Of a stretch of 64,000 bases of DNA, positions 269 to 36,902 are shown in pieces. The position numbers were made by a program, and so were the translations under genes. The DNA comes from Clostridiales bacterium (GTDB lineage: Bacteria; Bacillota; Clostridia; Monoglobales; WRBX01). Location: NCBI GenBank assembly GCA_031261985.1, contig JAISIR010000007.1:786-64785 (forward strand), read 5' to 3'. The notes below the pieces were generated by a model. It was not told the DNA's origin, searched no databases, and worked only from the letters and a program-made list of their open reading frames with translations. Each line of letters begins with the position of its first letter. Positions within the stretch are counted from its first letter, which is position 1.

Positions 269-367
269 AGTGGTAGCGGAGGAATAACGTCGTAAATCTA
301 AGGCAATTAGCATTGCGACAAATTGCGTTAATTGTTACCGAGTGTGACGTTGGAGGTTAGATAAAAA

Positions 368-1480: not shown

Positions 1481-1497
1481 GGGGTAGAGGATAAAAT

Positions 1498-1689: not shown

Positions 1690-1944
1690 AAAAGGGTTAG
1701 TGCAAAGGTAAGTGCTTTAGTGCAAAGGTGCCTATATCGACAAGATTTAGTGCATGAGTATTTGTGTTAAACATATTTTACTTGATAGTTTAAGTTTTAA
1801 ATAGTAGTTTTAAAAAATAGAAATTTCTAAACAAAACGTATGTGGTTAAGGCGCAAATGCTTAGATTTATTTAGCGGGTGTCAAAAAAATGTCCATTATG
1901 TTTTGAAGCGAATATAAACGCGGCGATAGCGGAGGTTAAAGATT

Positions 1945-2343
1945 ATGCAAATTACAGACCCAATTGCAGACTTGCTTACAAGAATAAGAAATGCAAGTAA
2001 TGCTAATCATCCAACAGTAGAGGTTCCTGCTTCTAACATGAAGATATCCATCGTTAAGATTTTACTTGATGAAGGTTATATATTGAAGTATGAAGTAATT
2101 AAGGATTCTATGCAGGGTGTTATTAAAATTTGGCTAAAATATAGCGATAATAAAAAACAAGTTATTAAAGGCATCAAGAGAATTTCTAAGCCAGGGTTGC
2201 GTGTGTATGTTCCTAAAGAGGAATTGCCACGTGTGCTAAAGGGTTTGGGTGTTGCTATTGTGTCTACATCTAAAGGGATAATGACTGATAAAAAAGCAAG
2301 GCGAGAGAATGTTGGCGGCGAAGTTTTAGCTTTTGTTTGGTAA
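1945..2343 (+). CDS. rpsH: 30S ribosomal protein S8
   Basis: [42 protein letters not shown]. Confidence 0.98.
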
Positions 2344-2475
2344 GATTAAGCTAAGCTGCATTGTACTAACAATCTTGACTGTTGGCGTATGACTAAGCAT
2401 TGCATGAGATAAGTGATGTTAGCTTTTTATGAAACGGTTTAAGATAAAAGTTTTATGTGAAAAAGGTGAATTTAC

Positions 2476-3021
2476 ATGTCAAGAATTGGAAGACAACCTA
2501 TTAATATACCTAACGGTGTTGAGGTTAATATAGACGCGGCGAATGTTGCAACGGTAAAGGGGCCTAAGGGTACTTTAACTCAGCAATTGCCTAAGATGAT
2601 TATTGTGACAATTGATAATAGTGTGATAACGGTTACACGTCCAGATGAGACTAAGGTTTCTAGGTCTATGCACGGGTTAACACGCACGCTATTGATGAAT
2701 ATGATTATTGGTGTTACAGAGGGCTGCAGCAAAACGCTAGAGATTAATGGTGTTGGTTATCGTGCAGAGAAGCAGGGAAAGACTTTAAAGCTTACTGTTG
2801 GTAAATCGCATCCTGTTACTTATGAAGATACAGAAGATATTAAGATAGAGGTACCGAACCCTAATACTATTATTGTAATTGGTATTGATAAGCAGCGCGT
2901 AGGTGCTGTGGCGGCGAATATCCGTGGTGAGCGCAAGGCGGAACCGTATAAGGGTAAAGGTATTAAGTATCTAGGTGAAGTTATTAAGCGTAAAGAGGGT
3001 AAAGCTGGCGGTAAGAAGTAG
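2476..3021 (+). CDS. rplF: 50S ribosomal protein L6
   Basis: [25 protein letters not shown]. Confidence 0.98.
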
Positions 3022-3105
3022 GCTAAACCGTCTATAGCTTAAGTGTTAGATGTGATTACTTAATTAGATAGATTTTACGACCGTTTTTTGGAGGGAAATG
3101 TTACA

Positions 3106-3465
3106 ATGAACAAGAAAAACAAGAATTTTGCTAGACAGCGCAGGCAAATGCGAGTGCGTGGGAAGGTTGCAGGCACAGCGGAGCGTCCTAGGTTGAATGT
3201 TTTTCGTAGCTTAAAAAACATTTATGCGCAGTTGATAGATGATGATAAAGGTGTTACTTTGGCTTCGGCGTCTACTAAAGACAAAGGGTTTGCGGCGCCG
3301 ATTAAGGGTAATAAGGCGGCGGCTAGAGAAGTTGGTAAAGCTTTGGCAGAGCGCGCTACTAAGATTGGGATTACCGAAGTGGTATTTGACCGTGCAGGAT
3401 ATATATATCATGGGCGTGTTGCCGAGCTAGCAGAGGGTGCGCGCGAGGGCGGTTTGCAATTTTAA
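3106..3465 (+). CDS. rplR: 50S ribosomal protein L18
   Basis: [34 protein letters not shown]; ATG at 3106 follows GGAGG RBS. Confidence 0.97.
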
Positions 3466-3688
3466 GACGTCGTGTTGTTATGGAGGTTTTAAGCTCTGTG
3501 GACTCTGGCGTTAAATGTAGTTTAAGGTTCTGTGGCGTTTGTGTATCTCCTTAGCGAGGACGTTGGTGCATAATGGCATTGAGGCTAGTGCATTTATTTT
3601 AAACAAAGAAATATTACTAGATTTTGATTACAAATTAATATATTGGTAGTTATACAAAATTATCGATTAGATACGTGAGGTTAGAATT

Positions 3689-4207
3689 ATGGCAAAACCT
3701 ATGAAGCAAAGACATGAAAAACAAGATGACATGCTAGAGCGTGTTGTAAAAATAAATCGTGTTGCTAAAGTTGTTAAGGGTGGTAGAACCTTTAGGTTTA
3801 GCGTTTTAGTTGTTGTTGGCGATGGTAAGGGGAAAGTAGGCTATGGTGTTGGTAAAGCAGCCGAGATTCCTGATGCTGTGCGTAAGGCAATAGAGGCGGC
3901 TAAGAAGAACATGATTACCGTGCCGCTTAAAGGGTCTAGTGTTCCGCACGAGGTTATTGGTATTTTTGGTGCAGGGCGTGTGCTTATTAAGCCGGCTAAA
4001 GAAGGTACCGGTGTTATTGCTGGTGGTCCGGCGCGTGCGGTTATGGAACTAGCTGGGATAAAGGACATTCGTACTAAGTCTTTGAGGTCTAATAATCCGC
4101 ATAATGTAGTTGCTGCATGTATTGAAGGGTTGAAAGAGCTTAGAAGCGCAGAAGATGTGGCAGCGATTCGTGGGATTACAGTTGACAAGGTATATGCTGG
4201 GGCGTAA
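3689..4207 (+). CDS. rpsE: 30S ribosomal protein S5
   Basis: [35 protein letters not shown]. Confidence 0.98.
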
Positions 4208-4435
4208 ACGTGTTTAGTGTTATAAGCTCTAAGGGCATTCGCTTTGTTTATGATTATTTGCACGAGAGTGAGATAATGGTGCTTGTGTAAGAGCAACAAT
4301 TAGTATTTGATATTATCAGCAAGATAAATTTTTTCTACGAAAGCAAGATAGTAGTTTTTGTGTGAAACAAAGAATTAGTGTTTGAGATTAAATGCAAGCA
4401 AGATATTGTAGGTTAAAGTTAGGAAGGTATAAAAA

Positions 4436-4615
4436 ATGGCTAAAGTGACTATAACGTTAAAGCGTAGCTTAATAGGTAGGAAGAAGAATCATATTGCTAC
4501 CGCGCATGCTTTAGGTTTAACAAAGATAGGGAATAGCAATACCTTAAATGATAACGATGCTATTCGTGGTATGATAAATACAATTTCGTATTTAGTTGAT
4601 GTAAAGGAGGCGTAA
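4436..4615 (+). CDS. rpmD: 50S ribosomal protein L30 (absent from ORF track)
   Basis: Hand translation [59 protein letters not shown]; between rpsE and rplO. Confidence 0.95.
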
Positions 4616-5374: not shown

Positions 5375-6649
5375 ATGTTTGAGACTATCAAAGAAGCATG
5401 GGCATTGCCAGATTTACGCAGGAAAATATTTTATACCATTATGCTAATTATAATATTCCGCATAGGTTCGTTTATTCCCGTTCCGTTTATGGACGCGGCG
5501 GCTATGCAACAATTGATTAATTCGGCAGGAGATGCCTCTATTATTGGGCTGTTGAACATGTTCTCGGGCGGTGCGTTTGCTAATGCGACCATATTTGCCA
5601 TGAGTATTACGCCATATATTAACTCTTCTATTATAATGCAATTGTTGACGATTGCTATCCCAGCGTTAGAGCGTATGCAGCGTGAGGGCGAAGATGGTAG
5701 GAAAAAGATTAATCAGTGGACTAGATATTTAACTATTGTATTGGCGTTTATCCAAGCGGCTGGATTATATGTAGCTTTGCAAGAGGTAACAGAGCGTGGA
5801 TTAATTCCATTTTTAGTAATGACTATTACGTTTACAACAGGAACCGCATTCTTAATGTGGCTAGGCGAGCAGATTAATGAAAAAGGTATTGGTAATGGGA
5901 TTTCGTTAATTATATTCGCTGGTATTGTAAGTCGCGCGCCGACGGTTATAACAACTCTTCAACAGAGCTATGTAAATGGGTCTATTAATGTGTTGGGTTT
6001 GTTAGGGATTGTGCTTTTAGCTTTGATAACTGTAGTGGCGGTTGTTATAATGAACGATAGCGAGCGCAGGCTTCAGGTGCAATATGCTAAACGTATTGTA
6101 GGGCGCAAAATGTATGGTGGACAAAGCACGCATATACCTATTAAGCTATTAGCGGCGGGTGTTATACCTATTATATTTGCGCTAAGTATTATGGCGTTCC
6201 CGTCTACTATTGCGGCGTTCTTTGGTGTAACTTCTACCTCGGGTGGGGTAATGGGTACAATTCTATCGTGGATTTCACCTGATTCGTGGATATATGCTAT
6301 AGTAACGTTCTTATTGATAATTTTCTTCACGTATTTTTACACATTTATTCAGTTCAACCCAGTAGAGGTTGCTAATAATATGAAGCGTTCGGGTGGGTTT
6401 TTGCCAGGGCTGCGTCCGGGCAAGCCAACGGCTGAGTATATTGCTAAGGTAGTGTCGCGTGTTACATTTGCAGGCGCGGTGTTCTTAGGTATCTTGGCGA
6501 TAATGCCTAACATGCTTAATATCTTTACAAGTGTTAATGTAGGTATAGGCGGTGCATCGGTGCTAATTGTGGTTGGTGTTGCGCTAGAGACTACTAAGCA
6601 GTTAGAGAGTAATATGGTAGTTAGGAATTATAAAGGGTTTTTAGAGTAA
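5375..6649 (+). CDS. secY: Preprotein translocase SecY
   Basis: SITPYINSSIIMQLL, WLGEQINEKGIGNGISLIIFAGIV, PGLRPGKPT; ATG after GAGGAGG. Confidence 0.98.
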   Translation: MFETIKEAWALPDLRRKIFYTIMLIIIFRIGSFIPVPFMDAAAMQQLINSAGDASIIGLLNMFSGGAFANATIFAMSITPYINSSIIMQLLTIAIPALERMQREGEDGRKKINQWTRYLTIVLAFIQAAGLYVALQEVTERGLIPFLVMTITFTTGTAFLMWLGEQINEKGIGNGISLIIFAGIVSRAPTVITTLQQSYVNGSINVLGLLGIVLLALITVVAVVIMNDSERRLQVQYAKRIVGRKMYGGQSTHIPIKLLAAGVIPIIFALSIMAFPSTIAAFFGVTSTSGGVMGTILSWISPDSWIYAIVTFLLIIFFTYFYTFIQFNPVEVANNMKRSGGFLPGLRPGKPTAEYIAKVVSRVTFAGAVFLGILAIMPNMLNIFTSVNVGIGGASVLIVVGVALETTKQLESNMVVRNYKGFLE

Positions 6650-6727
6650 AGTGTGCATGATGTGTGAGCGGTTTTAGCGTTAAGAGGATAATTTATAAAC
6701 GAAACGAAATTGAGGAGTAAATAATAA

Positions 6728-7360
6728 ATGAAGATAATTTTAACAGGTGCGCCGGGTAGTGGTAAGGGTAGTCAAACACCGAATCTTGAGAAATGGTTTG
6801 GGATTTCTACTATATCTACAGGGAATATGTTACGCGCGCAAGTAGCCGAGGGCACGCCGCTTGGTGTTCAGGCGAAAGAGATTATGGCGCGTGGCGGGCT
6901 GGTAAGTGATGATATAGTTATTGGCATGCTGGCTGATTCTATTGCTGAAGATAGATACAAAGCTGGGTTTATTTTAGACGGAGTGCCAAGGACGTTAGGG
7001 CAAGCGAAGATGATGACTGAAAAAGGCGTTGCAATTGATAAAGTTATCGTGTTTGATGTGCCAGATGAAGTTATCCAAAAGCGCATGAGCGGAAGACGCG
7101 TGTGTGAAGTTGATGGGTCGACGTATCATGTTGTGACTAATCCGCCACAAAATGGTAATAAGTGTGATAAATGTGGGGCGGAGCTAATTGTTCGCGAAGA
7201 TGACAAGCCTGAGACGGTTATGGCTAGGCTTAAAACGTATCATGAGCAGACCGAGCCGATTATTGAGTATTACAAGGATAAAGCAGACGTGATTATTATA
7301 AATGGTGACCAGACGATTGATGAGGTTGCGGTTGAGCTGAAAGAGGCACTGGGTGCGTAG
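6728..7360 (+). CDS. adk: Adenylate kinase
   Basis: GAPGSGKGSQ P-loop, GFILDGVPRT, lid domain; follows secY. Confidence 0.97.
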   Translation: MKIILTGAPGSGKGSQTPNLEKWFGISTISTGNMLRAQVAEGTPLGVQAKEIMARGGLVSDDIVIGMLADSIAEDRYKAGFILDGVPRTLGQAKMMTEKGVAIDKVIVFDVPDEVIQKRMSGRRVCEVDGSTYHVVTNPPQNGNKCDKCGAELIVREDDKPETVMARLKTYHEQTEPIIEYYKDKADVIIINGDQTIDEVAVELKEALGA

Positions 7361-7401
7361 AACATCGCATGAGTGCTATTTAAAAAACGAAGGTGCCTTT
7401 A

Positions 7402-8154
7402 ATGGTAAGTATAAAGAATAAAAAAGAAATCGACTTAATGATTATTGCAGGTGGTATTGTTGCAGAAACGTTAGATGCGATACAAGCGGCGATTGAGCCA
7501 GGGATATCGACTAAAGAGTTGGATTCTATTGCTTTAAGAGTTATCAAGAAAAATGGCGCGACGCCTTCGTTCTATCAATATGGTGGCTTCCCGGGGAATG
7601 TTTGCTTATCGATTAATGATAGGGTAATACATGGGATACCTTCTAGGCATGAGATATTACGCGAGGGTGACATAATTAGCGTTGATGCTGGTGCGTGTTA
7701 CAAGGGGTATCATGGTGATGCAGCGAGGACGTTTGGCGTTGGCAAGATATCGGCAGAGGCGCAAAGGTTAATAGACACGACGCGCTTGAGTTTTTTTGAG
7801 GGGATTAAGCAGGCGGTTGAAGGCAACAGGATAAGCGATATATCTAAAGCGATATTTAAAGTAGCGGACGATGCAGGATATGGTGTTGTGCGTGATTATG
7901 TTGGGCATGGCGTGGGTAGTAAGTTACACGAAGAGCCAGAGGTGCCTAATTATGATAGCGGGAAGCCAGGGGTTAGGCTATATAGAGGCATGACGATTGC
8001 GGTGGAGCCTATGGTGAATCAGGGGACTGCTGGGGTAAAAGTGTTAGATGATGATTGGACGGTTGTGACTGCCGATGGAGGGTTATCGGCGCATTATGAG
8101 AACACGATTTTGATAACCGATGGCGAGCCGATGGTGTTGACGGAGAAAAGATAA
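7402..8154 (+). CDS. map: Methionine aminopeptidase type I
   Basis: IHGIP, GDIISVDAG, GYHGDAART, GHGVG..LHEEP, SAHYENTI. Confidence 0.97.
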   Translation: MVSIKNKKEIDLMIIAGGIVAETLDAIQAAIEPGISTKELDSIALRVIKKNGATPSFYQYGGFPGNVCLSINDRVIHGIPSRHEILREGDIISVDAGACYKGYHGDAARTFGVGKISAEAQRLIDTTRLSFFEGIKQAVEGNRISDISKAIFKVADDAGYGVVRDYVGHGVGSKLHEEPEVPNYDSGKPGVRLYRGMTIAVEPMVNQGTAGVKVLDDDWTVVTADGGLSAHYENTILITDGEPMVLTEKR

Positions 8155-11160: not shown

Positions 11161-12135
11161 GTGAAGCGAATAGTGAGTGTATTAAACATAGAGCGTCCAA
11201 AAGTTGAAATAACCGAGATTAATGAGAGCAAGACGTATGGGCAATTTGTAGTCGAGCCGTTAGAACGCGGATTTGGGACTACGATTGGTAATGCTTTGCG
11301 TCGAGTTTTATTATCATCTATACCCGGTGTGGCGGCTAGTTACATAAAGATAGATGGCGTGCTGCACGAGTTTTCTACTGTTCCAGGTGTTAAGGAAGAC
11401 GTAACTGATATTGTCCTTAATATTAAGAACTTGGCGTTAAAAATTGTCGGTGCAGAAACTAGCAAGACTATTTATATCGACGCCGAGGGCGAAGGTGAAG
11501 TTTGCGCGCGTGATATTAAGGCAGATGCTGATGTAGAAATTATCAACCCAGACATGCACATTGCAACGCTTAATAAAGATGCAAGGTTATATATAGAAAT
11601 TGGTGTAAATCAAGGCAGAGGGTATGTGGCTGCTGATAAAAACAAAGAGGAATTGCAGCCAGAGATTGGGATTATTCCTATCGATTCTATATATTCGCCG
11701 ATTCGTAAGGTTAATTATTACACCGAAGATACTCGTGTAGGTCAAGTGACGGATTATGACAAACTTGTGCTTCAGGTATGGACGGATGGGACTATCGCAC
11801 CAGATGAGGCGTTGAGTATTGCGGCAGGGATTTTGCATCAGCATATAGAGTTGTTTACATCTTTAGTAGAGATGCCATTGCCAATTACGCCAGAAATTGC
11901 GCCTATAGACCAAGACAATCCTGATAAAGAGATTTTAGAAATGGTAATAGAAGAGATGGATTTATCTGTTCGTTCGTATAATTGTTTGAAACGTGCGGGG
12001 ATAAATACCGTTGGCGATTTAACTACTAAAACAGAAGATGACATGATGAAGGTTCGTAATTTGGGTAGAAAGTCGTTAGAAGAAGTTATATATAAATTGC
12101 ATCAGATGGGGTTGGATTTACAACCGATAGAGTAA
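11161..12135 (+). CDS. rpoA: DNA-directed RNA polymerase alpha subunit
   Basis: [45 protein letters not shown]. Confidence 0.98.
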
Positions 12136-12741: not shown

Positions 12742-12816
12742 GGCCCCTTGGTCAAGCGGTTAAGACATCGCCCTTTCACGGCGGAAACACGAGTTCGATT
12801 CTCGTAGGGGTCACCA
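12742..12816 (+). tRNA. tRNA-Glu (TTC)
   Basis: GGCCCCT/AGGGGTC acceptor stem, anticodon loop CTTTCAC, GTTCGATTC T-loop, encoded CCA. Confidence 0.96.
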
Positions 12817-13001: not shown

Positions 13002-13085
13002 TTAACGCAAATTTAACATAACCCCCTTTTTTACACTTGAAACTCTTCTTAAATTCTTGACAAACCCGAATATGCGTGATATAAT
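13002..13085 (+). promoter_or_regulatory. TTAACA-N5-TTAACA box plus sigma-A promoter
   Basis: TTAACG-CAAAT-TTAACA 13002-13018; TTGAAA 18 bp later (13037); TTGACA 13057-17bp-TGnTATAAT 13080. Confidence 0.7.
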
Positions 13086-13226
13086 TCAGGCATAATAAAC
13101 TTAAATGTACAAGCCCCGATATTTATAGGTAGAAATTTTGGGCTCATTATAAAGCTACCCAAACGGTAGCAAAAAATTATAGTTATTGATCTATTTCTTT
13201 GCTAATCGAAAGGATATACATAAATA

Positions 13227-13712
13227 ATGGGTAATAAACTAGATTTTGAAAAAATGAAAAATATTGGTCTGCCGGCAACCGAAAGAAAGGCAATGTTACC
13301 CTCTGTTGAGTGGACGATTTATGGGTTTATTGCAGTTTCTACTATTATAATAATGTATAAAGTATCGTCTGCAGAGGGGCAGGAATTTTCTCTATATATT
13401 AATATGATTATGTTAGTATATCTTTTTTCTGGTTTCTCTTTATTTAGTTCGTGGTTTATGCATAACACTGGTAAGGCAACTTTTTACAAAGATAGTATAA
13501 TGATAAACGGAACAAAATATGATAAATCCTTGTTTTTATATGTTTCATATTTACTATGCACCAGATTTGTTAATTATTCTCGCGTTTATGGAAGACGAGA
13601 TGAATTTTCTATTTTAATAAAATTCAAGCTCAAGAGTGGGGAGACGTTTTATAGCGAAATAGACCAGAATTACTTTAATAGTAAGATTAAACCTTATAAA
13701 ATTAAACGTTAG
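13227..13712 (+). CDS. Orphan membrane protein (2 predicted TM segments)
   Basis: 161-aa ORF with AAAGGA RBS, two hydrophobic stretches, basic C-terminus, downstream terminator. Confidence 0.7.
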   Translation: MGNKLDFEKMKNIGLPATERKAMLPSVEWTIYGFIAVSTIIIMYKVSSAEGQEFSLYINMIMLVYLFSGFSLFSSWFMHNTGKATFYKDSIMINGTKYDKSLFLYVSYLLCTRFVNYSRVYGRRDEFSILIKFKLKSGETFYSEIDQNYFNSKIKPYKIKR

Positions 13713-13754
13713 ACGCAGAATTATTTCGATATTTTATGACTGAATAATATTAAT

Positions 13755-13790
13755 CGAGTTGTTATATGATAACAGCTCGGTTTTTCTTTT
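13755..13790 (+). terminator. Rho-independent terminator
   Basis: cgagttgttat-atg-ataacagctcg followed by T-run. Confidence 0.65.
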
Positions 13791-13797
13791 TAAACCC

Positions 13798-13826
13798 TTG
13801 ACAAAGCTGCACAATAGTGATATAAT
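13798..13826 (+). promoter_or_regulatory. sigma-A promoter of AAA/VWA operon
   Basis: TTGACA-17bp-TATAAT with extended TG; GGGGGAG RBS downstream. Confidence 0.75.
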
Positions 13827-13859
13827 GCAGATATAAAATCAAGGGGGAGCAAATGCTTT

Positions 13860-15392
13860 ATGAGCGAAGCAACTTTAGCACTAAGTGCAAACCAGAATTT
13901 AGCACTAAGTACAAGGCAGAATATATCAATAAATAAGCAAGACTTAGACGATTTTAATAAAAAATTTAATGATCTAGGATATTTTTTTAGTAGTCAAACC
14001 GTTCTTCAACAGATTTTTCTTACTCTAAATTTTTATAATCTACAACGCAAAGGGCTTTCGGGCGTGCTTTTAGCAGGCGAGCCAGGCGTTGGTAAATCTT
14101 TTTTAGCCGAAGTTCTATCAAAAGTGGCAGGGTATGAGCTGCTTCAATATCAATGCACCGCCTCTACAACTGATGAGCAGCTTTTTGCTACCATCAGTCC
14201 TGTTGGCGTTGTTACTCGTAACGAAGAAGAAATGATTAAAAAAGGTATTCTTACGCAAGCGATTGACAGAGCTAATAATGGTGAAAAAATTGTCCTTTTA
14301 ATTGACGAGATAGATAAAGCTAACGAGAATATTGACCCATATTTTTTAACTTTTATGCAAGATGCTTTTTGTTTCACTCCTGAATTTGGAGCTAAACAAG
14401 TGGATAATGACAAGCGCGAGAACTTAATTGTTATTGTCTGCAAGAATAAGTGGAGAGAGCTAGACGGGTCGCTGCTTAGAAGGTTAAGGCGCGTAGAACT
14501 TGAATTGCCGACAGCCGAGAGCATGCAAAGAATAGTCGATTTTAGTGGCGATAACTACGACCCTGCTATGCGTAAAATTGCCCTTATTCTCTATGCGCAT
14601 ATGCGTAAGGAAAGAGAGAGTTTTTCGCGTGTGGCGACGGCGCAAGAGATTATAAATGCGCTAAACGATGATATTTTGCTTGAAAAAATAGAAGCGAGTG
14701 CAGCCGACCGTTTGTTTAGCTTGCTTAATTGGTTTTCTAATAATCATGATGCTGATTTTGAGAACCTTTGTAAAGTAATTAAAGATTTCGCTAAATTTGA
14801 TATAACTTCTGAGTTTAAGCCTGGGTTTGAACCTGTTCTTAACTTAACTTCAGAAGAAAGCGAGCGTTTGTTAAACCCTTATGGCGAGTTTTTTAAAGAA
14901 GTCTTTAGAGTTATTCAAAGCAATCTTACAACTTATTATGCAACCAATGGGAACAACCCTAAATTAATAGGTATAGTAAAATATAGCGGGAATAATATAG
15001 ATTTTAATATTCAGCAAAAGGAACTTACCTTTTTGCAAACTATTATTAACACAACGCCCGAGAAAGGGCTAGATAAAAGAATAAAAGTTGTAAATATGGC
15101 TGATGATGGACCGAACTCGTGTTATATGGCAGCTGTTCCTGTGAAAACTTTTGATAGCAATTACTATTTGCTTTTTTCTAACCAGAAAAATATGAATACC
15201 GAGAAATTTATAACAGGCATGCGAACCATTTTGGGGCAGGAAGAGAAGAAAACGACCTTTTTTGCTGGAAAAGTTCAAGCGGTAGGTGGAAGTGATACAG
15301 GGTTCCATAATGCTATGCTATCGGTTGAAGGGCTTGAGCCTAATGGCAATAATGCTAAATTCAACTTTTGGGGTAATGGAGGGGCGCGTTAA
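13860..15392 (+). CDS. MoxR/CoxD-like AAA+ ATPase with long C-terminal extension
   Basis: Walker A GEPGVGKS, Walker B LLIDEIDK, sensor/Arg finger RELDGSLLRRL. Confidence 0.8.
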   Translation: MSEATLALSANQNLALSTRQNISINKQDLDDFNKKFNDLGYFFSSQTVLQQIFLTLNFYNLQRKGLSGVLLAGEPGVGKSFLAEVLSKVAGYELLQYQCTASTTDEQLFATISPVGVVTRNEEEMIKKGILTQAIDRANNGEKIVLLIDEIDKANENIDPYFLTFMQDAFCFTPEFGAKQVDNDKRENLIVIVCKNKWRELDGSLLRRLRRVELELPTAESMQRIVDFSGDNYDPAMRKIALILYAHMRKERESFSRVATAQEIINALNDDILLEKIEASAADRLFSLLNWFSNNHDADFENLCKVIKDFAKFDITSEFKPGFEPVLNLTSEESERLLNPYGEFFKEVFRVIQSNLTTYYATNGNNPKLIGIVKYSGNNIDFNIQQKELTFLQTIINTTPEKGLDKRIKVVNMADDGPNSCYMAAVPVKTFDSNYYLLFSNQKNMNTEKFITGMRTILGQEEKKTTFFAGKVQAVGGSDTGFHNAMLSVEGLEPNGNNAKFNFWGNGGAR

Positions 15393-16886
15393 ATGATGAA
15401 TAATAACGCTTCAAACTCTAACCTTCAAACAAAAGCTAAACTTCAGGAAATTGCTGATTTACTTGAGGTTAATTTGAAAGCAAAGAAGAATAAACGAGTT
15501 TTTAATAAATTGAGAGCCAAGAAGCTTGAATTTAAAGGCGGTCAAGAGAAAGAAGGAACCGTTGACGAAGAAGATGCCTCGCAAAAATCTAAAAAAGAGA
15601 AAGCGCAAAAGCTGACTAAAGAACAATTAGAGTATATAAGGAATCATGCTGACCAACCGCTTGATTGGAATAAGCTGGAAGAAATTAAGGAACAATGTCA
15701 ACAGCCAAAGTTAGAGCTAGACGTCCAGTCTTCTGATGGGGAGTTTAGTTCTAGTGCGCAGGAACTTTTAGCAGATGCGTTAGAGGGGCAAGAGCTTGGC
15801 GAGGGAACACTTTCTGAAGAGGCACTAGAGGACACGCTCTCGAAGATATTGCAATATTTAGATGCAGAAACGTTAACTCAAATTTATAACAATGCAAAAC
15901 CGAAAAGTAGTTCTAAGGGAAAATCGGATGAGAATGATTTTTATGATTTGCTTGACGAATTTAGGTCCACAGAAAAGCTTTCGTACAAAGATTATAAAAA
16001 GAACAAAGAAAGCATGAATGATTTTGACAGCGACAATTACGATTTTGGCAGTGCGAAAATGGCACTTAAACATTACAAATTAACGCAAGAGCAGATTAAC
16101 AAAGAGCTTTCTGACTGGATTTTAAAAAGATTCGTTTCGCCTAACAACAATAGGTCAATAACATCTGATAAAATTGATTATTACAGGAAGCAATATGGCG
16201 ATAGATATATGCACAAAAAGAAAATAGTAAAGGATTTTGCAATGGGCTTGGAATATCGGATTCCGAGAGATACCTACTCACATCCTTTTGAAAAACAGCA
16301 CCCCCCTATTGCTATTTATTTTGATATCTCTGGAAGTAATTATAACTCGATAGATATGTATGCAAAAATTGTATCTAAAATTATGAAGAAAAATGTTTCG
16401 GTGTATATTGGTGCCGAGCCTGTGTTTTTAAGCTGTCGTGCTAAAGGGGATACGTTGCCAGCTGAAGATATACTAGATTATTGCTCTAATCTTGCGTATA
16501 ATGAGCCAGACGATGAGCTTGCAAAGTATTACGAATTTAAGCATTATAACTGGACGCATTTTGACGATTTAGTAGATGATGATAAAATTAAAACTTTAGT
16601 TTTGTTTACAGATTTTGATCGAGCGGAACATATAGCAAAGGCTAGTGAAAAATGTAATGTGTATTGGTTTTGTACAGAAATAAGAAATTCTAGGCATTGG
16701 GGCGGGCATGGAGTAAGGACGGAGTACCTTGACGATTTTAAAGGACACTTTATTGTTATAAACGAGGCTAATGACGCTTTGAAGTATTTGAAAAATGGAT
16801 TTGATAATAAAGAGTATGAAGAAAAAGAGCGCGCAAAGTATAAAGAACATATATTTGGTCAAAAGCAAAATGAAATGTTTAGATGA
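15393..16886 (+). CDS. VWA (MIDAS)-domain protein, likely partner of the AAA+ ATPase
   Basis: IAIYFDISGS (DxSxS), later LVLFTDFD; charged helical N-terminal half; abuts the ATPase stop codon. Confidence 0.7.
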   Translation: MMNNNASNSNLQTKAKLQEIADLLEVNLKAKKNKRVFNKLRAKKLEFKGGQEKEGTVDEEDASQKSKKEKAQKLTKEQLEYIRNHADQPLDWNKLEEIKEQCQQPKLELDVQSSDGEFSSSAQELLADALEGQELGEGTLSEEALEDTLSKILQYLDAETLTQIYNNAKPKSSSKGKSDENDFYDLLDEFRSTEKLSYKDYKKNKESMNDFDSDNYDFGSAKMALKHYKLTQEQINKELSDWILKRFVSPNNNRSITSDKIDYYRKQYGDRYMHKKKIVKDFAMGLEYRIPRDTYSHPFEKQHPPIAIYFDISGSNYNSIDMYAKIVSKIMKKNVSVYIGAEPVFLSCRAKGDTLPAEDILDYCSNLAYNEPDDELAKYYEFKHYNWTHFDDLVDDDKIKTLVLFTDFDRAEHIAKASEKCNVYWFCTEIRNSRHWGGHGVRTEYLDDFKGHFIVINEANDALKYLKNGFDNKEYEEKERAKYKEHIFGQKQNEMFR

Positions 16887-16981
16887 AAATGCAGCAATTG
16901 CTTGACAATTGCTAGGATTTATGGTAGTATTTACTTGAGCGATTCACCGCAGGTGGTGGAAATATACTTAGGGGGAGAATT

Positions 16982-17479
16982 ATGTCTAGAAAAAGTTGGA
17001 GACGAGCATATAAAGAGAAATATGGAGTGACGCCAGAGGAGCGGAAGCAACTGGATTTAGCACGAAAAGCTAAAGAGGCTAATATGTCAGAGGATGACGA
17101 GCTAGAGAATTCTGCAAAACAAAGCACCATTCCTGGTGGGAATCACGGTGTAGGGACGCATTATGGTAGTCGAAAAATTGGCGGCGTTGAGTATGATATT
17201 TATTGTGCAAAGAATTTAAAGAGAAGCAGGCGTGAGTTTGTTTTAGTCGGTTGGCAGAACGCGGCGGATGTTAAGGAACAAATTATACTCGGCACGGAAG
17301 AGCATCCTAAGTTAATATACCTTAATGGAGTGCATGAAGTAAAGGCGACTTTTGACATACCGTTTGGGTACGAGCGCGAAGTGGGTAGTATTTTGTTTGA
17401 TTGCAAGAGCTTAAACGATGCTAAAGCTCAAATAGATAATCTTAAGCTAAGAGCGGTTACTAATACTAAGAGTTTTTAA
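16982..17479 (+). CDS. Hypothetical protein
   Basis: 165-aa ORF with GGGGGAG RBS and own TTGACA(16902)-17bp-TGnTAGTAT promoter. Confidence 0.7.
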   Translation: MSRKSWRRAYKEKYGVTPEERKQLDLARKAKEANMSEDDELENSAKQSTIPGGNHGVGTHYGSRKIGGVEYDIYCAKNLKRSRREFVLVGWQNAADVKEQIILGTEEHPKLIYLNGVHEVKATFDIPFGYEREVGSILFDCKSLNDAKAQIDNLKLRAVTNTKSF

Positions 17480-17517
17480 CTATCACATTTGAGTTGACAA
17501 AAATGGGGGAGAATACC

Positions 17518-18879
17518 ATGAAATTAATTAGCAATGAGGCAATTGAATCGTTTTTAAGTGAGTGTAAGAATTGGGACGATATTACCAAGCTGGATTTTGG
17601 CAGGCAAAATTGTATCACTTTATTTGAGGTAATGGGCGAAAAGTTTAGTAATAGTTCTAACCTAGCAAGAGGCGAGGCGGCTTTTAAACAATTCTGTTAT
17701 GGTGTACTTGGCATGGCTGCGGGTGATGCCGGTTATAACAGGTATAAAACGGACGTAGGGGATATTTGTCATGCGGCGGCGAAATGTTTATTGCAGATGG
17801 GGGCTGTAGAGCCTAAAGTCTTTACATATTTATTACCAGAGGATATCTTTGAGCAATATAAAAAAGGTGATTATAACAGGAAATTAGAGCTGATAGAGAA
17901 TTTTAGTGAATTAAAGAGTGATGAGGCGAGCCGTCAGGAATTTTTTGAATTAATAGTTAAAGATAATGTTAAAGGTTCGACGGCTGAGAAGCTAAAAAGT
18001 AGTAAGAAAGTAGATGTATACGAAAAGGGTAAGCAGATAACAGATGAGAGGTTGCAGCTTGGTTTAATTAAATTATTGAATCAAGATAAAATAGATGTGC
18101 CTAAGAAAAGTTTGATTAAGCATTATGTAACTGGCTTTAAGGATATTCGGAATACTAACGAAGCGGTAAGGCTTGGAATTGAGCCGGCGGTGGATATAAT
18201 ATTACAGCGTGATATACAAGACAGCCTTATATTAGATAGCGATGCGCGGGATAGTTTTATTACTATAAGGGTGTGCAATAAACTAGGCGTAATTGGAAGT
18301 TACTTAAATATAAAGCAAGCTAAGGCGTTTGGGTTTGCTATTGTAAGCGATGGGCGTGGGATTAAGGCGATTAAGCTTGATGGATTATCGCCTGAGTATT
18401 TGAAAGCGTTATTGCTGGAAGAGATTAAGTCGGCTAAAGATAGTAAGTTTACACGTGATTTTATCATCGAGTTATTGAAGAAAAAATCGGCATCGGCGTT
18501 AGAAGAAGTATTTAATTGTGAAATGGTGAATGATGATATAAAGTGGGAGATTGCATCGAGTTTAAGCAAAGAAGATGCGTTTGTTAAACTTGCTTTACAA
18601 GAGGGGAATGGTGCCAGGGCTAAGATGGCGTTCTCACTTTTAAAGGAAGAGAAGAATATTCTTTGGGTGGTTTTAAAGTCGGACAATGCAGAGATTATAA
18701 ATAGTGGGATTGAAACTTTGAGTAATAAGCCTAATGTGCGCGATGCGCTAAAGGCGATACAAAAGAGTGCGGATTCGCCATATGCGCGAAATGTTGCCAT
18801 GCTTTATTTAAAGACGTTAGAGCACCCTATGGAAAAAGCTAAAGAAGTGAATAAGTATAAAGGTAGGAATATTGCGTAA
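17518..18879 (+). CDS. Hypothetical helical protein with possible HEAT-like repeats at the C-terminus
   Basis: Long ORF, ATG 17518 after GGGGGAG; roughly 25-aa amphipathic periodicity in the last 100 aa. Confidence 0.7.
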   Translation: MKLISNEAIESFLSECKNWDDITKLDFGRQNCITLFEVMGEKFSNSSNLARGEAAFKQFCYGVLGMAAGDAGYNRYKTDVGDICHAAAKCLLQMGAVEPKVFTYLLPEDIFEQYKKGDYNRKLELIENFSELKSDEASRQEFFELIVKDNVKGSTAEKLKSSKKVDVYEKGKQITDERLQLGLIKLLNQDKIDVPKKSLIKHYVTGFKDIRNTNEAVRLGIEPAVDIILQRDIQDSLILDSDARDSFITIRVCNKLGVIGSYLNIKQAKAFGFAIVSDGRGIKAIKLDGLSPEYLKALLLEEIKSAKDSKFTRDFIIELLKKKSASALEEVFNCEMVNDDIKWEIASSLSKEDAFVKLALQEGNGARAKMAFSLLKEEKNILWVVLKSDNAEIINSGIETLSNKPNVRDALKAIQKSADSPYARNVAMLYLKTLEHPMEKAKEVNKYKGRNIA

Positions 18880-18889
18880 GGGCAGGATT

Positions 18890-20896
18890 CTATAATGTAA
18901 GAGTGGTTAGGCTAGTGGATTTTGGTATTGTGCTATTTAGCCCAGGAACCCATTGTTTGATGAACTCTTGCGGGTTGGCATTATATTGCTTGCTAACCTC
19001 GTCGGGCGGTAGCTTAAACAGGGCGGTAACGACAGCCTTTTGAGCCACTAGTCTTGGGGCTATTGATTGGATTTTATTTAGTTCTTCGATAACATGGTTG
19101 ATTATTATTGTGTTTTCAAACCCGTCAAAAGTGTTGTTATGACAGGCTTTTTCAAAATCGCCTACGGTGCGAATATTATAATTATGCGTTAAATAAAGCC
19201 GGTTTTTTTTATCTAATGAATCTATATTTTTAAGTGGCGTGTTTTCGTTTAAAAAGCAAGGAGAGGTATTTGATGAGAGATTGGCGAAGAAATCTTCGTT
19301 TAACCCAGTAATCTCTTGAGCTTTTTGCATAATGTCAAACGATGTCGCCTTTTGCACTTGGTCTATTTTGTTTATAATTTTTGGCGGTTTAATATTATCT
19401 ACAGAGCTGTCTGAATTTTGTTCTAAAAGTTTATAATCTTTGATTTTCATTTTAATCTCGTCAAGAGTGGTTTTTCCCATGTAGTGTATTTGTTTAAGTT
19501 CGTCTTCACTTGTGTTAATTAAATCGGCTACAGTTTTAATACCAAAACGACGCAAGCAATTAAACGCTCTTACAGAAAAATGTAGCTCGCTTATATCTAT
19601 GTCGTTAGCGGAATCGCTAAAAGACGAGTTTTTATTCATTACACCAGCAACGGTTATTTTTATATCATTATCAATTGGTGTTTGCGTAACTTGATTATTA
19701 TCAGATTCTTTAGTTGTATTTTTAACTACCACATCATTTTCTAGGTAGCGTTGGATTTTACTCATTATTTTAGAATGTGACCTTTCGCCTAATCTAGGGA
19801 GGTGCAACAGTGATTCGCCATTGTCTTTGGCGGTTATTTCTAATAGTTTGTCTATCGTGGTAATTCCTGCGCGAACTAAGCATAAATATGAGTGCGTGTT
19901 TAAATCTAGGCTCATTATAGGGAAGTAAGGTAAATAGGAATCGGCAACAGAGGAAATGGGGATTGCCATAAAAGGAGTCTCTTGGTCGACATAAGTTGTA
20001 CGTGTAATAGAAGCGGCTTTGTCGTAAAATTTTTGTAAATGCCTATAGGCGGCAATTAATTGATTGGTACAGAATTTAGGTGATGAAGTGTAGTTGTATT
20101 TATCGACAATCTGTTTATTTGTTAATTTTTCTGCGCCAAATAAGCCTAGCCTATGCGATAAAATTATCTGGCGATTTTTAGACAGACTATTAAAAGCTTC
20201 GGTAAAAAGCTCGTCGGGTAGGAGCCTACCATGATGCATATTGCCGCCTAGTGCTATAGATTCATTTAAAATTTGCTTGGCAATAGGTATGATGGTTTTA
20301 TCTATTTTAAAACTTGAATAAGGTGTATTTTGGGGTTGTTCTGAGGGAGAGGGGCTACGCATGAAGGGAAGTAAGCCTGTGGGCTTTAGTAATTCAAATA
20401 TTTTATAATCATCGCTGGATTCAGGCGGTGTTGCAGCCTTATACTTGCGCCAAAATCTTTTTATAGTGTGATCCATAAAAATTGCTAGCTGGCGCTCGGC
20501 AAGGTTATCGCTATCCATCCTTGGGGGAGTGCCATCTTGCTTTGTATAATCTATCCATAGTTTAGCGTACTCGGGAAGAGGTTTGTTTTTTGGGTGTGGG
20601 ATATACTCAAGCGCGCCTATGGGGCTTAGCAGCTCGTGGATTCTATAGTCGATAGTATCGGCGGGTGGCTTTAAAATGCTAACGCTTATGCCTTTGGCGC
20701 TATCTATATTAATGGTGCCGCGACCATATTTTGAGTGTAACTCAGATTTTATTTCAAACATTTTTTTGCCTAGTTTTTGTTCGTAATCGCTTTTTTGTTT
20801 ATAATTTTCAGGTAAAAAGCCATTCTCGTCGTAAAAAGCGCGTATTGTTTTAGCCCAAGCGTAAGTCATGCTTGAATCGATGTTGTTTATACTCAT
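18890..20896 (-). CDS. Multidomain protein: N-terminal helical repeats, sigma70 region-4-like segment, two or more RNA polymerase alpha-CTD-like domains
   Basis: ISELHFSVRAFNCLRRFGIKTVADL...MGKTTLDEI and SLDLNTHSYLCLVRAGITTIDKL...LGERS resemble the RpoA CTD in this window; LSKNRQIILSHRLGLFGAEKLTNKQI is sigma4-like; ATG 20896 follows GGGGG RBS. Confidence 0.8.
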   Translation of the reverse strand: MSINNIDSSMTYAWAKTIRAFYDENGFLPENYKQKSDYEQKLGKKMFEIKSELHSKYGRGTINIDSAKGISVSILKPPADTIDYRIHELLSPIGALEYIPHPKNKPLPEYAKLWIDYTKQDGTPPRMDSDNLAERQLAIFMDHTIKRFWRKYKAATPPESSDDYKIFELLKPTGLLPFMRSPSPSEQPQNTPYSSFKIDKTIIPIAKQILNESIALGGNMHHGRLLPDELFTEAFNSLSKNRQIILSHRLGLFGAEKLTNKQIVDKYNYTSSPKFCTNQLIAAYRHLQKFYDKAASITRTTYVDQETPFMAIPISSVADSYLPYFPIMSLDLNTHSYLCLVRAGITTIDKLLEITAKDNGESLLHLPRLGERSHSKIMSKIQRYLENDVVVKNTTKESDNNQVTQTPIDNDIKITVAGVMNKNSSFSDSANDIDISELHFSVRAFNCLRRFGIKTVADLINTSEDELKQIHYMGKTTLDEIKMKIKDYKLLEQNSDSSVDNIKPPKIINKIDQVQKATSFDIMQKAQEITGLNEDFFANLSSNTSPCFLNENTPLKNIDSLDKKNRLYLTHNYNIRTVGDFEKACHNNTFDGFENTIIINHVIEELNKIQSIAPRLVAQKAVVTALFKLPPDEVSKQYNANPQEFIKQWVPGLNSTIPKSTSLTTLTL

Positions 20897-20919
20897 AGAG
20901 ATTACCCCCATATGCCTTT

Positions 20920-20984
20920 ATTATATCATAAATATTGACAAAGTTCAAGTGTAAAAAAGGGGAATTATGTTAAATTTGTGTAAA
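20920..20984 (-). promoter_or_regulatory. TTAACA-N5-TTAACA box plus sigma-A promoter (minus strand)
   Basis: Minus strand: TTTACA-CAAAT-TTAACA (20984-20968), 19 bp, TTGAAC (20948-20943), 17 bp, TGnTATAAT (20925-20920). Confidence 0.75.
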
Positions 20985-26679: not shown

Positions 26680-26743
26680 TTAACACAAATTTAACATAAA
26701 AGCGGATTTGCCTATTGCAATCCGCTTAATTTTGTGGTATAAT
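26680..26743 (+). promoter_or_regulatory. TTAACA-N5-TTAACA box plus sigma-A promoter
   Basis: TTAACA-CAAAT-TTAACA 26680-26696, 18 bp, TTGCAA 26715, 17 bp, TGnTATAAT 26738. Confidence 0.8.
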
Positions 26744-34527: not shown

Positions 34528-34583
34528 TTAACACAAATTTAACATTTAAAAGTATTGCATTTGCAATACTTTTGTGCTATAAT
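34528..34583 (+). promoter_or_regulatory. TTAACA-N5-TTAACA box plus sigma-A promoter
   Basis: TTAACA-CAAAT-TTAACA 34528-34544, 10 bp, TTGCAT 34555, 17 bp, TGnTATAAT 34578. Confidence 0.75.
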
Positions 34584-36759: not shown

Positions 36760-36838
36760 TGATTATTACCATCTATGGATAAACTCTATAGGTGGTATTT
36801 TTATAATTATTATCAGTAGTTTATTGATTTTATAAAAT

Positions 36839-36902
36839 TTAACATAAATTTAACATAACTGTCTATTTTACTATTGCATTTTATCTAAAAGTATGGTATT
36901 AT
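36839..36902 (+). promoter_or_regulatory. TTAACA-N5-TTAACA box plus sigma-A promoter
   Basis: TTAACA-TAAAT-TTAACA 36839-36855, 18 bp, TTGCAT 36874, 17 bp, TGnTATTAT 36897. Confidence 0.78.

Follow-up and report, generated by a model that had tools for sequence, protein, structure and literature searches.

An orphan clostridial protein that joins two RNA polymerase alpha-CTD units to a segment resembling sigma region 4

In the window (the whole stretch of 64,000 nucleotides of Clostridiales bacterium DNA that was analysed), we found that an orphan open reading frame, P0001, encodes two units of the RNA polymerase alpha-CTD type and a segment resembling region 4 of sigma-70. In RNA polymerase, upstream promoter DNA is read by two parts, alpha-CTD and sigma region 4. 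P0001 represents an extreme case, a sequence orphan in which a sigma4-like segment, a pair of alpha-CTDs and two other regions occur together. Its host has a reduced genome of 1.44 Mb, in which a private, rigidly placed promoter box precedes dozens of orphan genes, and the P0001 gene itself is one of those headed by the box. We read P0001 as a cytoplasmic, modular DNA-binding protein that would act as a regulator within the box regulon, and we give this reading, which was drawn from sequence, a probability of about one half.

The gene and its polymerase-like modules

The open frame on the minus strand (18890..20911) corresponds to 673 amino acids when counted, as in the ORF list, from an upstream ATG at 20911, and residues are numbered here according to this 673-aa frame. 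The ATG at 20896 is the likely start codon of a 668-aa product, since it is preceded by GGGGG, since the ATG at 20911 lies just 9 nt past the -10 hexamer, and since the database copy of the protein has the shorter length. The reading frame is real: its 668 codons are intact, in DNA of 37.6% GC. A crude check of N-terminal hydrophobicity flagged no export signal in P0001, a check that leaves other secretion routes possible. The features of the gene and of its upstream region are collected in the table.

Table. Coordinates of the features of the P0001 gene and of its promoter region in the window
Feature	Position	Residues	Strand	Evidence or remarks
Orphan protein CDS	18890..20896		-	668 aa from the SD-preceded ATG; database copy P0002, 668 aa
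Shine-Dalgarno-like GGGGG	20905..20909		-	8 nt upstream of ATG 20896; sequence reading
N-terminal repeat 1	20588..20869	~15-108	-	internal repeat test; putative HA likeness, structural leads
N-terminal repeat 2	20312..20587	~109-200	-	Smith-Waterman 64 vs shuffle maximum 49
Sigma-70 region-4-like segment	20066..20221	231-282	-	phmmer to P0004, hhalign; without Pfam match
Alpha-CTD unit 1	19739..19921	331-391	-	degenerate; Pfam 30.8 bits, own profile 22.2 bits, hhalign 96.3%
Alpha-CTD unit 2	19427..19612	~434-495	-	well conserved; Pfam 72.1 bits, own profile 63.7 bits, hhalign 99.0%
C-terminal 178 residues	18893..19426	496-673	-	no homologue; AlphaFold2 pLDDT 48.7
Sigma-A-type promoter	20920..20948		-	TTGAAC 20948-20943, 17-nt spacer with TG, TATAAT 20925-20920
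'-62 box'	20965..20984		-	two TT[A/T]ACA hexamers 11 bp apart, TTTACACAAATTTAACATAA
Inverted partner of the promoter-upstream region (20944-20984)	13002..13041		+	same box and spacer, CCCCTTTTTTACACTTGAA

P0001 matched the Pfam family RNA_pol_A_CTD (PF03118) with an E-value of 3e-27 and 94.6 bits, for a cut-off of 23.8, over two stretches which the whole-genome scan placed at window positions 19439-19612 (unit 2) and 19751-19927 (unit 1). The same two units had been picked out by eye in an earlier note on this DNA, and they were recovered independently by hhalign and by our own alpha-CTD profile, which was built from the CTDs of RpoA proteins and the units of P0003, P0001 being left out. Unit 2 matched the alpha-CTD of B. 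subtilis with an E-value of 1.6e-10. In the alignment to this domain, the SVRxxNCL motif of unit 2 keeps its Arg, Asn and Cys, and the second hairpin its Gly-Lys; we take these positions to be the DNA-contacting '265 determinant' of the E. coli literature. After Gly-Lys, unit 2 carries Thr-Thr where Lys/Arg-Ser is expected. In unit 1, His and Leu replace the Arg and Asn of SVRxxNCL; Cys, Gly, Arg and Ser are retained. The residues ahead of the SVR motif, where acidic positions presumably form the sigma4-contacting '261 determinant', are S-E-L-H in unit 2 as against E-E-M-D in the RpoA of the same genome. In the whole-genome protein search, identity to RpoA CTDs, including the one encoded in the same genome, was only 31-38% (38% between the latter and unit 2), indicating that the alpha-CTDs of P0001 are not a recent copy of rpoA.

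Both alpha-CTD units of P0001 share homology with the alpha-CTD of RpoA (PF03118; B. subtilis PDB 3ihq, 3gfk and 1z3e). However, RpoA possesses one alpha-CTD plus an alpha-NTD, whereas P0001 has two alpha-CTDs in tandem and, as the earlier note had stated, no alpha-NTD: neither RNA_pol_L nor RNA_pol_A_bac was listed by Pfam, and the score of 81.9 bits against the rpoA equivalog TIGR02027 lies under the cut-off of 227.8. The missing alpha-NTD implies that P0001 cannot assemble into polymerase; on this ground, and on that of the TIGR02027 score, we rejected P0001 as an RNA polymerase subunit. The true rpoA of the genome is found at window positions 11161-12135. A possible third alpha-CTD unit, proposed from the letters alone at residues 562-~615 (window 19067-19228), had to be abandoned. 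HMMER reported no domain there with its filters off, hhalign against the alpha-CTD profile gave 0.2%, and 490 and 501 of 1000 shuffles reached the observed Smith-Waterman score against units 2 and 1, respectively.

The sigma4-like stretch that had been noticed upstream of these units stood in part, its link to P0004 and its hhalign match being set against the lack of a direct Pfam match. Pfam Sigma70_r4 (PF04545/PF08281) gave nothing in P0001 at E<=1, and P0001 was absent among the nine matches of the genome at E<=10. Residues 233-282 matched a metagenomic protein, P0004, with a phmmer E-value of 4e-6 among 1.84 billion proteins, and the repeats of P0004 are Sigma70_r4 at 7e-32. By hhalign, the segment scored 93.1% with an E-value of 3e-7, the match being confined to residues 231-277, and an HMM of the P0004 repeats ranked P0001 first of the 5334 ORFs of its own genome. 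The likeness to sigma-70 region 4 (PF04545) takes in region 4.1 as well as the first helix of the HTH, whereas the recognition helix is divergent and not recognisably kept. Neither Sigma70_r2 nor Sigma70_r3 was listed by Pfam in P0001. The candidacy of P0001 as a sigma factor was rejected, given the lack of regions 2 and 3, the unconserved recognition helix and the lack of a Pfam Sigma70_r4 match.

For the N-terminal part, the earlier note had described two repeats reminiscent of helicase-associated (HA) domains. The duplication was upheld in a piece of about 26 residues (PPxxxDYxIxELLxPxGxL), the only significant one between the two repeats, for which 0 of 1000 shuffles reached the observed score. 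The HA profile (PF03457) gave no match in P0001 at E<=1 or E<=10, and HA likeness is only a weak structural lead: a low-confidence Atlas model of P0001 reached TM scores of 0.45/0.42 with an HA cluster and of 0.43-0.47 with HA-bearing helicases, all below 0.5. HA sequences were also sought in 301 genomes of the phylum; none were gathered and the controls were likewise silent, so that this search carries no weight in either direction. The N-terminal repeats are possibly HA-like. AlphaFold2, run without alignment, gave a mean pLDDT of 39.1 for full-length P0001, and this model, like that of residues 496-673, was too poor for a fold search. About 45% of P0001 (residues 1-230 in part, and 496-673) is without assigned function.

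Relatives and proteins of similar architecture

The orphan status claimed for the protein held across the searches run: no full-length homologue of P0001 was found in the collections searched, nor in 40 related genomes. The full-length search recovered only P0001 itself and P0003, and residues 225-500 and 496-673, searched separately, recovered only P0001 itself. The exhaustive phmmer search (1.84 billion proteins) covered residues 1-330. No relative appeared in scans of genome contigs and viral contigs. Using tblastn on phage and plasmid records, we obtained short matches only, within residues 408-505 around unit 2 (13 and 52 records); those annotated are DNA-directed RNA polymerase subunit alpha, and 80% query coverage was reached in none. 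PHROGs returned 0 families for P0001 and three of its neighbours (497, 165 and 461 aa), and a 277-residue piece of P0001 gave matches only at E 0.017 and 0.031.

The pairing of alpha-CTD with sigma4 is not unique to P0001 and recurs in unrelated proteins. P0003 (542 aa) contains four alpha-CTDs and Sigma70_r4 at 22 bits, and a 1096-aa ORF of a same-order genome, G070, scored above the cut-offs for PF03118 (32.7 bits) as well as for PF04545 (28.6 bits). Clusters of the ESM Atlas with both modules (53-218 members, some viral), which are leads only, bear the automatic name 'Bacterial RNA polymerase, alpha chain C terminal/Sigma-70, region 4 domain' and come from Bacillota, Bacteroidota and phages. 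All of these share module types with P0001 and occur sporadically, often in mobile or viral settings, but have no detectable homology to it beyond the shared modules. Sigma4 comes after alpha-CTD in P0003 and in the G070 ORF, whereas the order is reversed in P0001, with the sigma4-like segment before the alpha-CTDs. Furthermore, the sigma4 module of P0001 lies below the Pfam threshold, whereas P0003/G070-type proteins carry canonical DNA-binding sigma4 helices.

P0001 belongs to a loosely defined and uncharacterised class of proteins other than RpoA that carry alpha-CTD and sigma4 and come from Bacillota, Bacteroidota and their phages; it has both modules and lacks polymerase-assembly domains, the class being one of architecture, not of shared descent. 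The earlier note had allowed that the architecture might turn out to be that of a common, characterised family with another role. It does recur elsewhere, but a characterised role was not found in the papers searched, and the searchable literature yielded no described function for any non-RpoA protein with alpha-CTD and sigma4. The alpha-CTD-like HhH of the BREX kinase PglW (residues ~785-866) is locally similar to unit 2 (NCBIfam 19.5 bits, PADLOC 22.3 bits). However, this match concerns a small segment only, for a cut-off of 990 bits, P0001 has no kinase, and BREX genes are not nearby. One Atlas cluster (745 aa), a lead only, combines alpha-CTD, sigma4 and HA.

The promoter and the private box of the genome

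The P0001 gene has a strong promoter, which matches the sigma-A consensus at 10 of 12 positions, plus TG, in a consensus scan. The earlier note had located a box at about -62 of this promoter; it is indeed present, is of the genome-wide type, and stands in the modal register, with 50 nt from the start of the ATTTAACATAA core to the start of TATAAT. In the genome as a whole, the box is a pair of TTAACA-like hexamers located around -72 to -52 of the promoter, and the offset to TATAAT is 49-50 in 30 of 48 boxes. The TTAACA hexamer is -35-like, with one mismatch to TTGACA, and it lies in A/T-rich surroundings at a fixed distance from sigma-A promoters. The genome contains 48-74 copies, most of them upstream of orphan genes, and the box is specific to this genome (48 copies vs 0-10 in 20 relatives). 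No Pfam family was found in 28 of the 34 ORFs of the box regulon that were scanned, and the genes of the regulon are AT-richer than the genome (GC 0.361 vs 0.411). Carrying the box in its promoter makes P0001 a member of the box regulon, which it could regulate.

On contig C1, a 1054-aa ORF that bears several half-length alpha-CTD-like repeats and a neighbouring 318-aa ORF likewise have boxes. The 318-aa ORF is sigma4/HhH-like by eye only, as Pfam gives no such family. When P0001 was compared to the two small sigma4/HhH-like ORFs of its own genome, the link was weak, with a P of 0.012 by hhalign and none found by phmmer. It appears unlikely that the private box is read by P0001, perhaps jointly with these small ORFs of contigs C1 and C20. 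If it were so, P0001 would control about 50-70 promoters, nearly all of orphan genes. In that case, sigma4 (for -35-type hexamers) and alpha-CTD (for the adjacent A/T minor groove), both detached from the enzyme, would form an activator or gatekeeper of a new type. Binding to the box would mean that polymerase parts can be reused as free transcription factors, and would open an opaque regulon to study.

Possible functions of P0001

The recognisable parts of P0001 are all small helical nucleic-acid-binding modules, the alpha-CTD being a helix-hairpin-helix. The alpha-CTD of polymerase binds the A/T-rich minor groove at UP elements. From the modules we infer DNA binding by P0001, its target sites and a regulatory effect: unit 2 would dock in the minor groove of A/T-rich DNA, and the sigma4-like module may contact adjacent DNA or a partner. 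P0001 would then sit on DNA of the promoter-upstream type and transcription would be modulated; being itself transcribed from a box promoter, it could regulate the box regulon. If binding were non-specific, P0001 would be a further accessory DNA-binding protein of modest interest. The divergent recognition helix of the sigma4-like segment, the loss of Arg and Asn in unit 1 and the Thr-Thr of unit 2 count against the DNA-binding reading.

Alternatively, a cassette acquired horizontally might use P0001 for DNA sensing or regulation; P0001 would act there with an AAA_5 ATPase and four other ORFs that have no assigned family, for instance in a conflict or defence module of the MoxR/vWA type or in a regulatory module derived from a phage. 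The gene lies in a stretch of 7.9 kb that separates tRNA-Glu from the PFOR operon and is flanked by 40-nt inverted repeats. The partner repeat heads a unit (13227-18879) that is convergent with the P0001 gene and encodes a 161-aa membrane protein, the AAA_5 ATPase and orphans of 497, 165 and 461 aa. Consistent with acquisition, the stretch follows tRNA-Glu, an 18-mer of the inverted repeats occurs exactly twice in the genome, and GC is 0.35-0.38 as against about 0.40-0.41 for the genome; the AAA_5 ATPase also has weak PADLOC matches. In relatives, extra alpha-CTD ORFs stand in phage or mobile contexts (the 1096-aa ORF of G070 and, in genome G065, a YopX+alpha-CTD ORF that adjoins an ORF that is DNA-methylase-like by eye), and viral clusters with alpha-CTD and sigma4 exist. 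However, each of the inverted repeats is a copy of a promoter type that the genome contains about 50 times, so that the two need not be the ends of an element. Integrase, transposase and phage families were not found, nor any PHROG for P0001 and its three adjacent neighbours; PADLOC on P0001 gave just the local PglW alpha-CTD-like match, and for the 497-aa neighbour vWA is suggested by a motif seen by eye, Pfam finding none. In six relatives, the rpoA-rplQ flanks (7.5-16 kb) contained no island genes, and the window genes after rplQ were absent from them, save for one weak porD-like match; these relatives are distant (RpoA 54-65% identical) and not syntenic, so that the empty-site comparison is uninformative. 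Taken together, we consider a role in such a cassette improbable.

As alpha-CTD and sigma region 4 are polymerase surfaces contacted by activators, the earlier note had proposed that P0001 is a mimic of RNA polymerase or an activator decoy. By titration, its free surfaces would draw activators or sigma/alpha contacts off RNA polymerase, so that the box regulon is damped or transcription in another cell is disturbed. The two modules are indeed present without a polymerase-assembly domain, the box in the promoter of P0001 makes negative feedback conceivable, and the identity of unit 2 to the RpoA CTD of its own genome points the same way. This role nevertheless seems very unlikely. Arg, Asn, Cys and Gly-Lys are kept among the putative DNA-contact positions of unit 2, the residues before its SVR motif depart from those of the host RpoA, unit 1 is degenerate, the likeness to sigma4 is partial, and the crude check found no export signal. 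Moreover, the canonical sigma4 helices of P0003/G070-type proteins suit DNA binding better than titration. The retained Arg, Asn, Cys and Gly-Lys of unit 2 lean toward DNA binding over pure mimicry.

There is, finally, only a slim chance that P0001 is an accessory protein that evolves fast, plays no part in transcription and uses its alpha-CTD units as scaffolds for protein-protein contacts, for instance a host-interaction or structural protein of a reduced-genome bacterium: the scarcity of Pfam families and the AT-richness of the box regulon would suit this, as would the half-length repeats of the 1054-aa ORF, but the alpha-CTD of unit 2 is complete in length and well conserved, and the sigma4-like HTH alongside it, in a pairing repeated in unrelated proteins, argues for nucleic-acid work.

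Domain composition of P0001

The 673-residue frame P0001, whose numbering is used throughout, matched the alpha-CTD family RNA_pol_A_CTD (PF03118) in two stretches (E 3e-27, 94.6 bits against a cut-off of 23.8) and also HHH_5 in a Pfam search. A six-frame scan of the genome scored the units at 72.1 and 30.8 bits. We also built an alpha-CTD profile, leaving P0001 out, from four units of the 542-aa protein P0003 and nine distinct RpoA CTDs, which remained after one duplicate was removed from the ten loci taken from this genome and eight relatives. On P0001 it gave 63.7 bits for unit 2 (residues 435-495) and 22.2 bits for unit 1 (residues 331-391), with hhalign values of 99.0% and 96.3%, respectively, and the alignment of unit 1 with unit 2 was better than all 1000 shuffles. 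The best solved relatives were B. subtilis alpha-CTD chains (3ihq_B, 3gfk_B and 1z3e_B; E about 2e-10). The two units that the earlier note had recognised by eye are thus borne out. Its third, degenerate unit was rejected: no domain was reported at the site with all HMMER filters off, hhalign gave 0.2%, and the Smith-Waterman scores were no better than those of an average shuffle, being reached by 490 and 501 of 1000. The proposed lack of an alpha-NTD was confirmed, as Pfam listed no such domain in P0001 and all rpoA equivalog models fell far under their cut-offs (e.g. 81.9 against 227.8 bits). P0001 cannot be part of the polymerase.

In a tool alignment with the B. subtilis alpha-CTD, unit 2 has retained Arg, Asn and Cys in the SVRxxNCL motif as well as Gly-Lys in the second hairpin; directly after Gly-Lys it has Thr-Thr in place of Lys-Ser. 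The kept positions correspond to E. coli R265, N268, C269, G296 and K297, which belong to the '265 determinant' for DNA binding; from their retention, unit 2 may bind DNA. Unit 1 is without the Arg and Asn of this motif and, because of this loss, may act as a spacer or protein contact. At three positions presumably forming the acidic, sigma4-contacting '261 determinant', the genome's own RpoA has E, E and D (E-E-M-D) and unit 2 has S, E and H (S-E-L-H). Unit 2 is 38% identical to the own RpoA CTD and 31-37% identical to the CTDs of relatives, and is not a recent rpoA duplicate.

Sigma70_r4 was not listed by Pfam for P0001 at E<=1, and P0001 was absent from the nine genome matches to this family at E<=10. 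An exhaustive phmmer search of 1.84 billion representatives with residues 1-330 returned one non-self match (residues 233-282, E 4e-6), the metagenomic 1051-aa protein P0004, whose tandem repeats match Sigma70_r4 (7e-32) and Sigma70_r4_2 in Pfam. P0004 consists of seven tandem Sigma70_r4 repeats of about 93 residues, an unusual array from which other sigma regions are absent. An HMM of these repeats ranked P0001 first of 5334 own-genome ORFs (E 0.0013), with four of the own-genome ORFs that match Pfam Sigma70_r4 next to it or close behind, and hhalign gave 93.1% (E 3e-7) for the segment. The likeness spans residues 231-277, covering region 4.1 and the first HTH helix; the recognition helix shows no recognisable conservation. 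The sigma4-like stretch seen earlier is partly supported, through its homology with the P0004 repeats.

The two N-terminal repeats, previously likened to helicase-associated (HA) domains, form a significant duplication solely within about 26 residues (PPxxxDYxIxELLxPxGxL; Smith-Waterman 64, shuffle maximum 49, reached by 0 of 1000 shuffles), and no HA profile in Pfam matched P0001. The low-confidence ESM Atlas model of P0001 (pLDDT 0.57) gave alignments below the tool's bar: with a cluster that has HA alone (TM 0.45/0.42), with helicases that carry HA (TM 0.43-0.47) and with a 745-aa cluster in which RNA_pol_A_CTD occurs in 31%, Sigma70_r4 in 31% and HA in 25% of members. These structural alignments are leads only; the duplication is partly supported and the HA likeness stays a lead. 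Residues 496-673 had no homologue in a word search of 5.8 billion proteins.

The gene and its surroundings

P0001 is among the few minus-strand genes of the window, where nearly all long ORFs lie on the plus strand. Plus-strand GC skew is very strong and sustained over positions 1-64000 (0.15-0.34 in most 2-kb windows). As the upstream ATG at 20911 comes just 9 nt past the -10 hexamer, translation most likely yields a product of 668 aa, a length that matches the database copy P0002 and the end coordinate of the earlier note. P0001 is a genuine, well-promoted orphan gene.

Coordinates of P0001, its neighbours and related features (window positions unless a contig is named)
Feature	Position	Strand	Remark
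Genuine rpoA	11161-12135		
Ribosomal-protein/rpoA/rplQ cluster, tRNA-Glu	tRNA 12742-12816		one flank of the P0001 stretch
161-aa membrane-like ORF			between flanks, convergent with P0001
510-aa AAA_5 ATPase			between flanks, convergent with P0001
497-aa ORF			convergent with P0001; DxSGS motif by eye, no Pfam family
165-aa orphan			between flanks, convergent with P0001
461-aa orphan			between flanks, convergent with P0001
P0001 long ORF	18890..20911	minus	673 aa, ORF list
Probable start ATG	20896	minus	sequence read
GGGGG Shine-Dalgarno	20909-20905	minus	sequence read
P0001 sigma-A-type promoter	TTGAAC 20948-20943, TATAAT 20925-20920	minus	17-nt spacer with TG; read directly and consensus scan
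Inverted repeats, 40 nt	13002-13041, 20944-20984		bound the stretch
2-oxoacid:ferredoxin oxidoreductase operon	from 21123		four subunits; other flank
Boxes	13002-13021, 26680-26699, 34528-34545, 36838-36859, 45850-45869, 63554-63573	plus	
Box of P0001 promoter	20965-20984	minus	
1054-aa ORF	C1 99434-102595	minus	box promoter
318-aa ORF	C1 102787-103740	plus	box promoter
234-aa paralogue of 318-aa ORF	C20 2170-2874	minus	blastp 6e-10; no box
1096-aa alpha-CTD+Sigma70_r4 ORF	L060 (G070:C15) 1243-4530	minus	
624-aa ORF	L060 (G070:C15) 6127-7998	minus	no Pfam family

The stop codons of P0001 and the 461-aa ORF lie 10 nt apart, and no terminator-like site was found between them. The 18-nt core of the bounding inverted repeats occurs exactly twice in the genome, and both copies are inward-facing promoter-upstream regions. 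The 161-aa and AAA_5 ORFs each follow a perfect sigma-A promoter (TTGACA-17-TATAAT, TG included), at 13044-13095 and 13785-13836, respectively. The two promoters are nearly the same, with 75% identity across 52 nt, and a strong terminator-like hairpin lies between them at 13752-13782.

Orphan status and proteins of similar composition

No full-length relative of P0001 was found in the 5.8-billion-protein word search, in 40 related genomes, or in GTDB species genomes, viral contigs, and phage and plasmid records. Non-self matches came from 38 of the 40 genomes; all of them aligned residues ~407-572 with the CTD region of rpoA, and almost all lay within open frames 316-359 aa long. Orphan status thus holds within the collections searched; the nearest genomes are distant (RpoA identity is 56% for the sole genome of the same family and 54-65% for five others compared), so that it may partly reflect sparse sampling of the lineage.

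P0003 carries four alpha-CTD units (2.2e-48), then Sigma70_r4 at 22 bits, just below the 24.1 cut-off. Alpha-CTD family matches outside rpoA (E<=1e-5) occurred in four of 80 sampled same-order genomes, of which G070, G065 and G051 were inspected and G022 was left out. G070 has a 1096-aa ORF in which PF03118, at 32.7 bits, and PF04545, at 28.6 bits, each exceed their cut-off; G065 has a 186-aa YopX+alpha-CTD ORF adjoining a gene that is DNA methylase-like by eye; and G051 has a stand-alone alpha-CTD of 116 aa. The C-terminal ~600 aa of the G070 protein have no assignment, and its gene lies ~1.6 kb from the 624-aa ORF, a possible conserved partner. ESM Atlas clusters automatically named for both domains have 53-218 members, from Bacillota, Bacteroidota, Saccharimonadota and phages; nearest to P0001 by features are two clusters from Bacillota, of 716 and 591 aa, that are named for the alpha-CTD alone (score 0.90). 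All these proteins have modules in common with P0001 but no detectable common descent. No published description of alpha-CTD/sigma4 proteins was found in the literature searched, which omits most subscription journals, so one may exist elsewhere. In its architecture P0001 represents a variant within an existing, uncharacterised class and is therefore less singular than it first seemed.

The '-62 box' and the function of P0001

P0001 is transcribed from a predicted promoter carrying the '-62 box', an upstream element of two TT[A/T]ACA hexamers. This box, reported in the earlier note, proved real and also genome-wide: the 11-mer ATTTAACATAA has 48 genome copies against 2 for the reversed control, and the 20-mer TTAACACAAATTTAACATAA, with up to 3 substitutions, 74 against 1. 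The full pattern is [T/C]TT[A/T]ACA[C/T]AA-ATTTAACATAA. T[AG]TAAT was found 30-80 nt downstream of 40 of the 48 boxes (random positions, 137 of 2000) and at offset 49-50 in 30 of them; the P0001 box, at offset 50, has the modal spacing. These promoters run from the box over 14-16 nt to TTGAAA, TTGCAA or TTGACT, and then over a 17-nt spacer containing TG to TATAAT, so that the box covers about -72 to -52. In 20 relatives the 11-mer was not enriched (0-10 copies against 0-9 in controls); as sampled, the box is private to the lineage.

By a crude ORF call, 43 boxes led to 40 downstream ORFs. Among the 34 scanned together, 28 had no Pfam family at E<=1e-3 and four were above a curated cut-off (D-Ala-D-Ala carboxypeptidase, Mur ligase, GGACT-like protein and a PTS-related fragment); four more were scanned separately and two of 43-44 aa were left out. 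Mean GC was 0.361 for box genes against 0.411 for 963 ORFs of at least 200 aa. On contig C1, divergent 1054-aa and 318-aa ORFs have two boxes in the region between them. In the former, some four to eight half-length alpha-CTD-like repeats (alpha-CTD family 3.8e-17 in Pfam for the 699-aa part scanned) precede a C-terminal ~400 aa without assignment; the latter is sigma4/HhH-like by eye only, Pfam giving no such family. This lineage-specific regulon is arguably more striking than P0001 itself.

Every recognisable module of P0001 is of a kind that binds nucleic acid in known contexts. For this reason, and because unit 2 keeps the DNA-contact positions while its '261 determinant' is changed, we infer a DNA-binding regulator, with a probability of about 0.5, in preference to a sensor, a decoy or a scaffold. 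P0001 is unlikely to be a sensor specific to the cassette and acting together with the AAA_5 operon. It is similarly doubtful that P0001 itself reads the box. A sigma4-type HTH beside alpha-CTD modules is the reader one would design for such an element, whose TTAACA hexamers are one base off the -35 consensus TTGACA and lie 11 bp apart in A/T-rich DNA, and three alpha-CTD or sigma4-like genes lie under the box. However, the recognition helix of P0001 is divergent, the hexamer repeat is also compatible with the direct repeats that OmpR/PhoP-type response regulators bind, and the tie between P0001 and the box is a co-occurrence in one genome only. Less probable still is the decoy suggested earlier, with its speculative mechanism: P0001 does combine alpha-CTD and sigma4-like modules, but S, E and H in unit 2 weaken exact mimicry of the polymerase surface. 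A scaffold acting outside transcription is equally improbable given modules of nucleic-acid-binding kinds.

Many box promoters have, by eye, an inverted repeat that lies between box and -10 and has a palindromic -35, TTGCAA, at its centre (for example window 26700-26735; C10:6829, C13:85628, C6:33880 and C16:3214). The stems vary yet stay complementary (GCGGATT/AATCCGC vs GAGGATT/AATCCTC, or CCCC...GGGG). This repeat could serve as a further operator or form a hairpin that overlaps the -35.
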